64,000 bases of DNA from contig DATJFI010000055.1 of assembly GCA_035495715.1 (NCBI GenBank), positions 22,071 to 86,070 of the forward strand, in the 5' to 3' direction. Under the pieces are notes generated by a model that was not told where the DNA came from, searched no databases, and was given only the letters and a program-made list of their open reading frames with translations. Made by a program: the position numbers and the translations under genes. The first letter of the stretch is position 1; each line of letters opens with the position of its first letter. Below, one piece after another: positions 9,544 through 48,215 of this stretch. The DNA is from Casimicrobiaceae bacterium (GTDB taxonomy: Bacteria; Pseudomonadota; Gammaproteobacteria; Burkholderiales; Casimicrobiaceae).

Positions 9544-9619
<76 letters not shown>

Positions 9620-14316: not shown

Positions 14317-15399
14317 ATGAAACAGTCCTTACGCACGAGGCTCGATCAACTGAGCGCGCGGCTGCTGGAGCTCGACGCGCTGCTCGCGGCGGAAGACGCG
14401 ACGCGAGATCTCGACCGCTTCCGTTCGCTCTCGCGCGAGCGCGCCGAAATCGAGCCGGTCGTCGTGCGCTTCGGCGACTTCCGGCGCGCCGAGGACGACG
14501 TCGCCGCGGCGATCGAGCTCGCGCACGAACCGCAGATGCGCGATTACGCCGACGAGGAGCGCCGTGCAGCCGAGACGCGCATCGAGGCGCTGACGGGCGA
14601 GCTGCAGGCGATGCTGCTGCCCAGGGACCCGAGCGACGAGCGCAACGTTTTCGTCGAAGTTCGCGCAGGCACCGGCGGCGACGAGTCGGCGCTCTTCGCC
14701 GCCGATCTGTTCCGGATGTATGCGCGCTATGCGGAGCGACAGGGCTGGCGCGTCGAGATCGTCTCCGAGTCATCGTCCGATCTGGGCGGTTACCGCGAAA
14801 TCGTCGCGCGGATCGTCGGCCAGGGCGCGTACGCGAAGCTCAAGTTCGAGTCGGGCGGGCATCGCGTGCAGCGCGTGCCGGAGACCGAGGCGCAGGGCCG
14901 CATTCACACGTCCGCGTGCACGGTCGCCGTGCTACCCGAGGCCGACCCGGTTGCCGACGTGACGATCAATCCCGCCGACATCCGCATCGACACCTTCCGC
15001 GCATCGGGCGCCGGCGGCCAGCACATCAACAAGACCGACTCGGCGGTGCGGATCACGCACCTGCCGACCGGCATCGTCGTCGAGTGCCAGGACGACCGGT
15101 CGCAGCATCGCAATCGCGCGCAGGCGATGGCGGTGCTCGCGTCGCGGCTCGTCGACAAGGAACGCCGCGAGCGCCAGCAGAAGGAGGCCGCGCATCGCAA
15201 GAGCCTGATCGGCTCCGGCGATCGCAGCGAGCGCATCCGCACGTACAACTTTCCGCAGGGCCGCGTCACCGACCACCGGATCAACCTGACGCTCTACCGG
15301 ATCGACGCGATCATGCAGGGCGATCTCGACGAGCTGATCGCCGCGCTCGCACAGGAGTTCCAGGCCGAGCAACTCGCGGAGCTCGCGACGGAACCATGA
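14317..15399 (+). CDS. prfA: Peptide chain release factor 1
   Basis: [12 protein letters not shown] (PxT), [17 protein letters not shown]. Confidence 0.97.
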
Positions 15400-15480
15400 G
15401 CGCAAAGGGCCGCCCCGAGCGCGAATTGCGCCCCCCGGGGGGCAGCGAAGGGGCGAAGCCCCGAGCGTGGGGGGAACATA
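15396..15480 (+). repeat. Start-codon-associated palindromic element, long variant (copy C)
   Basis: ATGAGCGCAAAGGGCCGCCCCGAGCGCGAAT is 26/31 identical to the 47323 copy; internal CCCCCCGGGGGG and GGGGC-GAA-GCCCC hairpins. Confidence 0.7.
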
Positions 15481-16028
15481 CCACCGGTGCGAAGCGTCCG
15501 TGGTGCTGCACGAAGCGGCTCGCGCTGTCGGAGATCACGCCCGCCGACGGCAACGAGCTTCACGAGCTCGACGCCGATCCGCGCGTCATGCGCTACATCG
15601 GCAGCGGTGGCGCATCGACGCGCGAGCAGATCGACGATGCGCTGCGGCGCATTCCGCGCGCGTACAGGCTCTACCCGGGTCTCGGGACGTGGCGCGCGAC
15701 GCGCCGCGACAACGGCGATTTCGTCGGCTGGTTCGCGCTCAAGTACATCCCGGGCACGACGGAGGTCGAGGTCGGCTACCGGTTGCGACACGCGGCGTGG
15801 GGCCGGGGCTTTGCGACCGAGGGCGCGCGCTCGCTCGTGCGCTACGGGCTCGACGAGCTCGGCCTCTACCGGATCCTCGGCATCACGCATCCCGACAACG
15901 CGGCCTCGCAGCGCGTGCTGCTGAAGGCGGGCCTTGTCGATTCCGGCTGGGGGCACTACTACAACCGGCCGGTGCGCGTGTTCGAATGCGTGCGCGACGC
16001 CGCGTGGCGGCCGCAGTGGCACGCGTGA
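15396..16028 (+). CDS. GNAT (RimJ/RimL-like) N-acetyltransferase with element-derived N-terminus
   Basis: [45 protein letters not shown]; ATGA overlap with prfA. Confidence 0.85.
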
Positions 16029-31786: not shown

Positions 31787-32485
31787 TCAGCCGCTTGGAT
31801 GCATCGCCTGGATGCGGGCCAGCACCGCTTCGACGATGCGGTCGCACCGCTCGCCGTCGAAGCCGAAGACCTGCTGGGTCACGCTGTCGAGCTCCTCGGC
31901 GAGCGACGCGCGAAGGCGCGCCTTCGCGCGGAAGAGACGACTCCGTACCGTCGGGGCGGGAATGCCCAAAGCCGCGGCGGCTTCGTCGACCGTCATGTCC
32001 TCGACCTCGCGGAGCACGAAGACGGTCCGGTACGCTTCGGGTAGTTCGTCGATCTTGCGCTCGATCAGCCGGCGCATCTCGGTGCGCGCCATCGCGTCCT
32101 CCGGCATGTCGGCGGCGAGTGGATCGGTGACGGCGTCCTCGCCATCCGCAGGCTCGGCGGCCGGTTGGTCGAACAGCACGACGACCTGCTCGCGACGCTT
32201 GCGGCGCAGCGCCTGGAGCGCCTGGTTGACGACGATGCGCGTGAGCCACGTGCCGATCTGCGCATCACCGCGGAATGCGCCGGCGTGCCGCCACGCCGCC
32301 AGATAGCCTTCCTGCACCGCGTCTTCCGCCGCTCCGTCGTCCTTCAGGATCGCGCGGGCCGTGCGGTAAAGCCGGCGGTTGTAGCGGCGCATCAGCACGG
32401 CGAACGCCGCAGCGTCGGCGCGCTGGACGCGCAGGACGAGGGCTGCGTCGTCCTCGGTCTCGAGCTGTTTCGATAAGGCGGTCAC
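31787..32485 (-). CDS. ECF sigma factor, ECF29-like (C-terminal RCD motif)
   Basis: RYNRRLYRTAR, AEDAVQE, TVRSRLFRA, FGFDGERCDRIV; linked to DUF4142 and cupredoxin. Confidence 0.88.
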   Translation of the reverse strand: MTALSKQLETEDDAALVLRVQRADAAAFAVLMRRYNRRLYRTARAILKDDGAAEDAVQEGYLAAWRHAGAFRGDAQIGTWLTRIVVNQALQALRRKRREQVVVLFDQPAAEPADGEDAVTDPLAADMPEDAMARTEMRRLIERKIDELPEAYRTVFVLREVEDMTVDEAAAALGIPAPTVRSRLFRAKARLRASLAEELDSVTQQVFGFDGERCDRIVEAVLARIQAMHPSG

Positions 32486-32549
32486 CGGTCTACCTCCGCG
32501 CTACGCGCTGCGGGGCTGATTCGCGCGCAGGAAGGCCCGCAGCGGTCAC
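32478..32549 (-). repeat. Start-codon-associated element (copy B) with 8-bp direct repeats
   Basis: 42/57 identical to the 47323 copy (29/32 in the 3' part); GCGGTCAC repeated at 32478-32485 and 32542-32549; supplies GGAGG. Confidence 0.8.
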
Positions 32550-46387: not shown

Positions 46388-47326
46388 ATGACGGCTCTCC
46401 TGCCGCCGCGCCGGCTGACGATCGCCACCCGCGAATCCGCGCTGGCGCTCTGGCAGGCCGAGCACGTGCGCTCGCGCCTCACGTCCCGTTATCGAGGCAC
46501 CAGCGTCGAACTGCTCGGCGTCACGACACAGGGCGACCGCATCGTCGACCGCCCGCTTGCAGCCATCGGCGGCAAGGGGCTGTTCATCAAGGAACTCGAG
46601 AACGCGCTTCGCGACGGTCGCGCCGACATCGCCGTCCATTCGCTGAAGGACGTGCCGATGGACCTCCCCGACGGCTTCGTGCTCGCCGCGATCTCGGCGC
46701 GCGAGGATCCGCGCGACGCGTTCGTATCGGTTCGCTATGCGGCGCTGTCGTCGTTGCCGGCGGATAGTGTCGTCGGCACGTCGAGCCTGCGCCGCGAAGC
46801 GCAACTGCGCGAGCGCCATCCGGGCCTTCGCATCGATCCGCTGCGCGGCAACGTGCAGACGCGTCTTGCGAAGCTCGACGAAGGCCGTTACGACGCGGTC
46901 GTTCTCGCCGCCGCCGGATTGAAGCGTCTCGGGCTCGGCACGCGCATTCGCGCGCTGCTCGATCCCGACGAAAGCCTGCCGGCGCCCGGGCAGGGTGCGC
47001 TCGCGATCGAGTGTCGCGCCGATCGCGCGGACCTGCTGCAGGCACTCGCGCCGCTCGCCGATCGCGGGACGACGCTCGCGACGGCGGCCGAGCGCGCGTT
47101 CTCGCGTGCGCTCGGCGGAAGCTGCCAGACGCCGCTTGCCGCTTACGCCGAATGGGAAGAGGGACGGCTGTGGCTGCGCGGACTGCTCGCCTCGCGCGAC
47201 GGTCGCGAAGTATTGCGCGGCGAGCGGGAAAGTCCCGTCGGCGACGTCGACGACGCGTGCGCGCTCGGCACGGCCCTCGCCGACGATTTCCTGCGCCGCG
47301 GCGCACATCGGCTTGCCGCTGCATGA
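46388..47326 (+). CDS. hemC: Hydroxymethylbilane synthase
   Basis: [44 protein letters not shown]. Confidence 0.96.
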
Positions 47327-47391
47327 GCCCGAAGGGCCGCCCCGGCGGCGAATCAGCGGCGCAGCGCGAAGCGCGGAGGCCAGTTGCATGA
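47320..47391 (+). repeat. Start-codon-associated element (copy A) with 7-bp direct repeats; encodes a 22-aa mini-ORF
   Basis: TGCATGA at 47320-47326 and 47385-47391; [22 protein letters not shown] overlaps the hemC stop and the hemD start; internal GGAGG. Confidence 0.82.
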
Positions 47392-48215
47392 CGGGCGAGA
47401 TTCATTCGCTGTCGCCGCCGCCGCGCGCCGAGCCCGGTCCGCTCGAGGGCGTCGGCGTCATCGTCACGCGACCGCAGCGTCCGGCGGCCGTGTTCGCGTC
47501 GCGCATCGCCGCCCTCGGCGGCAAGCCCCTGATCTGGTCGGCCATCGTGATCGAGCCGCCCGACGACGTCGCGCGTCTCGCCGACGCCCATTCGAAGCTC
47601 GACGATTACGACATCGCGATCTTCGTGTCGGCGAATGCCGTCGAGTTCGGCGCGCGGCCGGGACGCCCGTGGCCCGCGGCGCTGCGCACGTTTGCGCCGG
47701 GCCCCGGAACCGCCGACGCGCTCGCCGCCGCCGGCATCGCCGATACGCGCATTCCGGCAAAGTCGTGGGACAGCGAGGGCTTGCTCGAACTGCCCGACCT
47801 CGCCGACGTCGAGGGTAAGCGCATCGTCATCTTCCGCGGCGAGGGCGGCCGCGAATTTCTCGGCAATACGCTGCGCACACGCGGCGCGATCGTCGATCAC
47901 GTGCCCTGCTATCGTCGCGTCGCGCCCACCGGCGGCGCCGACGGACTGGTCGAGGCGCTGCGCGACGGACGCGCGCATGCGCTGACGCTCACGTCGGCCG
48001 AAGGGGTCGACAACCTGATGGCGGCGCTCAGCGCCGAAGGCCGCGCGATGATCGCGAGATTGCCGGCCTTCGCCGCGCATCCGCGCATCGTCGAGCGCGC
48101 GCGCGAGCGGGGACTGCAGGCGGTGGAAACGTCCGGCGGCGACGGTGGATTGCTCGCCGGGCTCCTCGACTGGTTCGGGCCGGAAAAGTCGCGCGCGAAC
48201 GCGCAGCGCACGTGA
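47388..48215 (+). CDS. hemD: Uroporphyrinogen-III synthase
   Basis: VTRP, FVSANAV, GPGTA, DSEGLL, RGEGGRE, YRR, TSAE. Confidence 0.93.
   Translation: MTGEIHSLSPPPRAEPGPLEGVGVIVTRPQRPAAVFASRIAALGGKPLIWSAIVIEPPDDVARLADAHSKLDDYDIAIFVSANAVEFGARPGRPWPAALRTFAPGPGTADALAAAGIADTRIPAKSWDSEGLLELPDLADVEGKRIVIFRGEGGREFLGNTLRTRGAIVDHVPCYRRVAPTGGADGLVEALRDGRAHALTLTSAEGVDNLMAALSAEGRAMIARLPAFAAHPRIVERARERGLQAVETSGGDGGLLAGLLDWFGPEKSRANAQRT

Follow-up and report, generated by a model that had tools for sequence, protein, structure and literature searches.

The DNA examined here, referred to as the window, is a stretch of 64,000 nucleotides (nt) from a Casimicrobiaceae bacterium (GenBank assembly GCA_035495715.1, contig DATJFI010000055.1), and our subject is a short repeat lodged at the junction of its hemC and hemD genes. 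The porphobilinogen deaminase gene hemC (46388–47326, plus strand; Pfam PF01379 and PF03900) is followed by the uroporphyrinogen-III synthase gene hemD (47388–48215, plus strand; Pfam PF02602), and the sequence TGCATGA occurs at 47320–47326 and again at 47385–47391, a period of 65 nt. The TGA of the first repeat is the stop codon of hemC and overlaps the ATG of the element; the ATG of the second starts hemD, at the same start as in congeners with an empty junction. An open reading frame (ORF) of 22 codons (47323–47391, plus strand) spans the insert, overlaps each gene by four bases and is presumably translated. A Shine-Dalgarno-like GGAGG (47375–47379, plus strand) lies 8 nt upstream of the hemD ATG, partly within a predicted stem. 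Repeat spacing, stop and start codons, ORF and GGAGG are exactly as given in an earlier reading of the sequence, the original prediction, which took the insert for a non-autonomous mobile element. Contigs of the public runs X8 and X16 bridge the element with 0–1 differences, and one X11 contig also bridges it, so it is not an assembly error.

We place the unit, here called S type, at 47323–47387 (plus strand) from alignment and from the closest congener (L091; 87% and 85% protein identity), in which the hemC-hemD junction is exactly 65 nt shorter. Its end falls within the shared ATGA, and 47327–47391 is an equally valid notation. Two hairpins are predicted within it. Hairpin 1 (47323–47353, plus strand), supported by covariation, has the ATG within its outer stem, which leads through a 3x2 internal loop to a conserved inner hairpin, GGG-CCGN-CCC; one outer pair is broken in the hemC-hemD copy. 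The inner stem of hairpin 2 (47364–47374, plus strand), drawn from alignment and covariation, is GCGC-GAA-GCGC with a GNA triloop. A hairpin had been predicted here in the register CGCG-AAG-CGCG, but covariation favours GCGC-GNA-GCGC.

Two related copies had been proposed in the window, and their identities to the hemC-hemD copy, 42/57 at 32478–32549 and 26/31 at 15396, were reproduced. Both sit on start codons, but neither repeats the hemC-hemD arrangement. The first is a 64-nt S-type copy (32486–32549, minus strand) at the start codon of a sigma factor gene of ECF type (31787–32485; Pfam). Its ORF stops at a TAG after 19 codons, 4 nt before the GTG of the sigma factor gene, and the location is not a stop-start overlap. 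This site is empty in 4/5 congeners, and the fifth carries another hairpin insert. The second is an 84-nt copy of a longer L type (15399–15482, plus strand), directly 3' of an ATG at 15396 that overlaps the stop codon of a peptide release factor gene (Pfam). It has neither mini-ORF nor second start and is fused in frame to the next gene as an 84-nt N-terminal extension. There is no repeat at its right end, and the site is empty in congener G361.

Copies of the family and their filled and empty sites

The genome from which the window comes (G000) is 3.3 Mb long and 88% complete, and its genes were called with our own hexamer-based caller. Iterated BLAST returned 98 matches at 86 loci in G000 alone, far above chance, bearing out the expectation that a profile scan of this and related genomes would turn up further copies. 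The element lies between co-oriented genes at 77/85 loci with two neighbours, compared with 883 of the 1349 G000 gaps of at least 50 nt. Copies fall into S (~65 nt, including the hemC-hemD copy), L (84–89 nt) and M (~78 nt) types. S-like units can sit within the loop of an L or M copy, composites of ~200 nt occur, and tandem arrays are common, with GTGA at 33/44 internal junctions. The 583 flanking ORFs, when clustered, are of unrelated kinds, with no recurring family beyond common ones. Some L and M copies enclose a second module of ~100 nt, which has hairpins with GAA loops (C75:7030-7260, C24, C62 and C52 of G000; L070, L073 and L074); the orientation of this module in G000 is opposite to that in G265. 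In G000, some L copies that lack an ATG of their own and have a fully paired outer stem lie a few codons inside genes (at C6:39259, C61:17953 and C12:37531, for example), and others follow a 2–6-codon stub of the old gene start.

The family is widespread among relatives. A 13-base core matched 0–218 times per genome in 92 congeners (an unpublished genome, G341, included), against 0–5 times for a reversed control, and 80 of the 92 have at least 10 matches. In family f57 the core was matched in 182/201 genomes, up to 94 times (control 0–3); single matches are at chance level. Among 301 sampled Pseudomonadota, at least 10 core matches were found only in Burkholderiales (mycobacteria were not searched), and a strict 20-base pattern, which under-counts divergent copies, was present in 10/301 genomes of the order. 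The family spans Casimicrobiaceae-like genomes and Comamonadaceae, with Variovorax and Diaphorobacter as named hosts. A copy on the conjugative IncP plasmid pDCB2 of Diaphorobacter sp. JS3051 (L088) points to a possible inter-genus route. A related element also lies at the apparent hemC-hemD junction of G042, from a distant family of the order (L396). One genome of another class of the phylum (G717) has 112 matches to a mirror-image core control and 0 to the core, probably an unrelated high-copy repeat. Phage carriage was considered and rejected, as all 7 viral matches arise by chance, 6 of them inside one large phage gene.

Empty alleles, which the original prediction had looked to as a check, exist at hemC-hemD and elsewhere. 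Among 29 congener hemC-hemD loci, 8 have a plain overlap (one of them, L119, from G341), as expected if removal of one unit restores an ordinary junction, and none has an S-profile match. By eye, the L092 junction resembles a decayed S copy, and that of L112 gives a weak L-type match. Two further congeners, G361 and G335, hold 69 element loci in 60 stretches; 55 of these have an orthologous site in G000, 47 of them empty and 8 filled in both. In another genus, a junction filled in G202 is empty in 18/20 congeners, and the two others hold different family members; 3/24 loci of this comparison yielded no gene pair. Different members thus occupy the same start codons, which are hit repeatedly. 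At the Variovorax paradoxus phnJ-phnK allele divergence was too high to place the junction, and an RNA run yielded only a piece of another copy in its contigs.

Start codons, reading frames and junctions

For position relative to start codons, we used patterns that left the ends of the element largely free. The pattern for the 65-nt type fixed the TGA and left the preceding base and the 3' end free. It recovered 33 copies from other genomes, spread over 31 loci whose labels are mostly Casimicrobiaceae, Burkholderiales or uncultured betaproteobacteria. All but one (32/33) begin with ATG, GTG or TTG, 23/33 read through 21–22 codons into DTGA, and 22/33 keep the GGAGG; flanking gene frames fit the copies in 12/13 and 16/18 cases. 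For a 60-nt variant, the pattern covered the inner 42 nt with free flanks and matched at least 120 metagenome loci. ATGA or GTGA stands at the left of 104/110 distinct copies, and in 65/73 scored copies the left TGA closes the best-coding frame of the upstream gene (26 were unscorable). This variant is 20 codons long and fuses in frame with the downstream gene, whose frame agrees with the right codon in 52/65 copies (21 unscorable). The right-hand start is still ATGA or GTGA in only 76/110, a frequent decay that is expected if in-frame fusion makes a second start unneeded.

As a baseline, a four-base overlap occurs in only 340/2222 co-oriented gene pairs of G000. Both sides of the element show an excess of the context GC-ATGA-GC (64/99 vs 62/340 and, for GC in the two bases that follow the right-hand NTGA, 56/86 vs 65/340), the background being ordinary G000 overlaps rather than the host genomes of the scored copies. 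Only 129/1366 ATGAGC sites in G000 are gene starts, and targeting and selection are therefore inseparable from genomes alone.

Copies occur in three layouts: a coupled 22-codon mini-ORF (65 nt), a fusion that extends the downstream protein N-terminally in frame (60 or 84 nt), and an inverted layout with a 26-codon relay ORF on the other strand. The last is that of the M type, in which both neighbouring genes lie on the other strand in 17/24 copies and a recognisable start is found on that strand in 18/24. Among these 18, the relay ORF starts −4 to +5 nt from the upstream stop in 15, ends −4 to +6 nt from the downstream start in 15, and is exactly 26 codons long in 11. Of 62 forward G000 loci, 35 were scored, comprising 16 coupled, 14 fused in frame, 4 uncoupled and 1 without a scorable neighbour; the pattern missed the other 27. 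The proposal that the element brings its own ribosome-binding site and mini-ORF thus describes the 65-nt layout, but that is only one of three. Each layout keeps a reading path open for the host gene; the mini-ORF would probably be translated and the insertion harmless to the gene.

The predicted placement on start or stop-start sites is borne out for these copies, but in some Comamonadaceae-like genomes (f57) relatives of the element are found within genes or between two convergent ones. Riding on start codons is accordingly a trait of subfamilies within a wider hairpin family. Some f57 members lie in predicted coding sequences (L403, L405, L390), with six tandem copies in one efflux-pump-like gene.

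The ends of the element bear on how it enters. Left and right codons are ATG and GTG in 42/84 copies and the same start codon in only 20/84, usually only TGA is common to both ends, and the 84-nt type, inserted directly after ATG, has no right-hand repeat. These differences argue against a general target duplication. The direct repeats noted at the window copies are real, but the 7- and 8-bp matches are thus local coincidences around the shared TGA. Empty alleles fit either NTGA, left or right, as the target's own.

A double-stranded circle moved by an IS110-like or other site-specific recombinase, with TGA as the shared core, would account for the lack of terminal inverted repeats, for a common TGA in most copies and for array junctions that resemble a circle junction; moreover, IS110-family elements that target translation starts exist (IS900). 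Against this, TGA is missing from the right end of the 84-nt subfamily, and G000 has only a broken IS110 remnant. IS110 was matched in 3/5 high-copy genomes, with 0/4 loci bounded by the element. We consider such a circle unlikely. The G000 remnant, a truncated IS110-family transposase gene, lies between glycosyltransferase-like and radical-SAM-like genes (L030, C51:18706-22035).

Paired stems and the search for a mobiliser

Across 73 G000 copies, 358/438 pairs of the outer stem of hairpin 1 are Watson-Crick, against 207 ± 11 with shuffled partners. In 35 S copies, 98.1% of 525 cells pair and 25 double changes occur, and 0/500 shuffles reach either value; the number of further pair types is not above shuffles. 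In Comamonadaceae-like genomes the outer stem sequence is replaced entirely, yet pairing persists and the core that it encloses is unchanged. Most terminal loops are C-GNA-G triloops, which are especially stable in single-stranded DNA (ssDNA); GNA triloops number 51 on the core strand against 12 on the other, with slightly different filters for each count. The two strands could not be told apart by minimum free energy folding, whether RNA or DNA parameters were used. The M type carries the same hairpins on the template strand, from which we infer that the structure acts as DNA rather than as mRNA. Alignments revealed no terminal inverted repeats, in agreement with the prediction that the element is not a classic miniature inverted-repeat transposable element (MITE).

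The structure could alternatively belong to a cis-regulatory mRNA leader, a translation attenuator kept mainly by host selection and only incidentally repeated. Conserved structure at start codons, a GGAGG lying partly in a predicted stem and the 8/55 sites common to species would suit such a leader. Yet the inverted subfamily has its structure on the non-mRNA strand, the genes flanked are of unrelated kinds, most sites are lineage-specific and Rfam gave no match, and we regard a leader as very improbable.

The original prediction saw no mobilising enzyme in the window, and none was found in G000 either. Nor did searches for Y1, IS110, TnpB, GIY-YIG and reverse transcriptase (RT) genes yield the co-distributed transposase, HUH nuclease or RT that the prediction had envisaged. 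None of 30 TnpB loci has an element profile match (nhmmer), no transposase-like gene lies between closely spaced copies in the pairs examined, and no recurring mobile gene is found among the 583 clustered flanking ORFs. At 14 GIY-YIG loci, the small genes carry other repeats, and three long-ORF loci have a copy nearby and are not bounded by it. Small congener GIY-YIG genes (L240, L241, L243, L249) are flanked by their own hairpin repeats, as in Ssn/SRM systems. An Ssn-like gene occurs in 17/92 congeners and is missing from 22/28 genomes with at least 50 core matches; compared by the gene, median core copy numbers are 44 and 24 (one-sided p 0.03), among kin that are not independent. As a required partner the Ssn-like gene was rejected, because most high-copy genomes are without it.

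Spread might also need no dedicated enzyme, with host recombination or template switching copying the repeat into TGAGC-core sites and slippage building arrays. The excess of GC after the right-hand NTGA matches the element's own 5' end, tandem arrays with GTGA junctions are common, and no enzyme was found, all as this account would have it. It fits poorly with the 84-nt subfamily, which inserts directly behind ATG and shares no core on the right, and with an invariant inner hairpin beside a free but covarying outer stem, which together look like a protein-binding site. Five shared bases are also little for homology-driven copying. We give this account little credence.

Taken together, the evidence leads us to consider it probable that the family is a gene-less Burkholderiales repeat sitting on start codons, a non-autonomous mobile element with two predicted ssDNA hairpins that is likely moved in trans. 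Its copies are dispersed and many, their position relative to start codons is not random, sites are filled in some genomes and empty in others, start codons have been re-occupied, copies lie at DTGA overlaps in three layouts, and their stems covary; by comparison among genomes, the family is mobile, as the original prediction held. Several observations weigh against this conclusion. G000, at 88% completeness, gave no Y1, GIY-YIG, RT or TnpB match and IS110 only as the broken remnant, and the element matched at 0/40 Y1 loci of carrier lineages, where further Y1 loci exist. No empty allele was found in a near-identical strain, and no joint skipping the 65 nt in contigs of 8 runs, one scan being noisy, so that these contigs speak neither for nor against excision; the empty alleles come from other species (~80–90% identity), so exact junctions are blurred. 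The −8 to +8 window used for 'coupled' in G000 is generous, and the stricter copy-frame tests carry the weight. Covariation counts related copies more than once, and folding energy, under either RNA or DNA parameters, is barely better than that of shuffles (mean z −0.3 to −0.8).

If the element is mobile as we propose, it would fold as ssDNA, and the inner GGG-CCGN-CCC hairpin with its 3x2 loop would be the binding site of the enzyme. For that enzyme we favour, granted mobility and at slightly less than even odds, a transposase or nuclease that recognises hairpins in ssDNA, as those of the IS200/IS605 or REP kind do. The element would enter within the four bases ATGA, with no true duplication, and bring a replacement start codon, often GTG, or none. 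Sites may be chosen partly by sequence, given the GC-ATGA-GC enrichment, and partly by selection. Copies would survive where expression of the gene behind them is maintained, whether through in-frame fusion or through a coupled mini-ORF from which ribosomes pass to the rebuilt start, and inverted M copies may persist by means of the relay ORF on the other strand. The mini-ORF peptide itself would be without function.

Relation to known repeats and wider meaning

Mycobacterial interspersed repetitive units (MIRUs), reportedly described by Supply et al. in 1997, are known to form tandem arrays and live in slow-growing pathogens. According to a 2025 review (PMC12548453), MIRUs are seemingly mobile, insert at start codons with an ORF coupled at −4, and likely have little effect on expression. 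The present family is likewise short, dispersed, placed on start codons with an ORF coupled at −4, and variably present among relatives. Its hosts, Burkholderiales, belong to another phylum, and the likeness is one of described lifestyle rather than of compared sequence. In-frame fusion variants, an inverted subfamily with an other-strand relay ORF, nested composites and a strongly covarying double hairpin go beyond MIRUs.

The family also resembles the REP, BIME and REPIN (RAYT) repeats and the GTAG and CGTC families, as described in PMC3733652 and PMC6006769, in being gene-less and high-copy, with lineage-variable covarying hairpins, clusters and some in-frame copies in genes. Unlike those families, it sits on start codons, and its hairpin bears neither GTAG/GTGG nor CGTC at the 5' foot; GTAG, where present, lies 3' of hairpin 2 (11/22). 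Nor is any Y1 transposase gene flanked by the element at those 40 loci. With IS200/IS605 ends and their non-autonomous derivatives (PMC6006769), it shares a hairpin near each end, no inverted repeats and no clear target duplication, but no profile match was found at the 30 TnpB loci or at 30 Y1 loci. Right ends of TnpB elements of the order read GAAT, a C/G stem and TCAA in 5 of the 12 listed, loosely like the GAAT-hairpin-TCCA of the S type, which we would call a resemblance only. GAAT is invariant in the S type, so covariation of guide and cleavage tetranucleotides has nothing to measure. Two TnpB right ends (L440, L445) have extra small hairpins in the terminal-stem loop, with GNA-like loops in L440.

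Bacterial MITEs and Rickettsia palindromic elements, the latter also named in PMC3733652, resemble the present family as small non-autonomous inserts and in making in-frame additions to proteins. It departs from them, and from classical MITEs in particular, in lacking terminal inverted repeats and a fixed-length target duplication and in its focus on start codons. Hairpin repeats are also a property of Ssn GIY-YIG ssDNA nucleases with their NTS/SRM sequences (PMC11893778), and such genes are present in the genus; the SRM motif taken from that paper occurs in 0/86 loci, however, and no small GIY-YIG gene is flanked by the element among the 14 loci. Rfam covariance models, which place a tRNA gene elsewhere in the window (9547–9619, minus strand), gave no match to the element, so that neither Rfam nor the SRM motif supplies the catalogued family that would remove its novelty. 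We found no description of the family in the literature searched, which covered few subscription journals and no supplements (those of PMC3733652 and PMC2267715, for example, may be home to related repeats). The claim of a new element accordingly holds, apparently, for the sequence family, but not for its lifestyle, which is already known from MIRUs (PMC12548453).

A broader possibility, which we hold to be rather doubtful, is that these repeats form a class of ssDNA transposons without genes of their own, which actively target translation starts, are mobilised by enzymes of a family so far unconnected with transposition, and have evolved three separate ways of escaping the ribosome's notice: relay ORF, in-frame fusion and inverted relay ORF. 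If true, it would offer a tractable counterpart of MIRUs and explain their movement; to our knowledge, how MIRUs move is still open. It would also mean that N-termini of 20–29 residues have been added to many Comamonadaceae and Casimicrobiaceae proteins. A MIRU-like lifestyle in an abundant family with members in cultured soil genera (Variovorax, Diaphorobacter) makes the mobiliser, the target rule and the relay directly testable. Annotation is affected as well: in Variovorax sp. SRS16 the repeat is taken for the N-terminus of PhnK, as its first 20 residues. Arrays may serve as typing markers, and the family is an example of how junctions within operons, hemC-hemD among them, can be settled by a selfish repeat.
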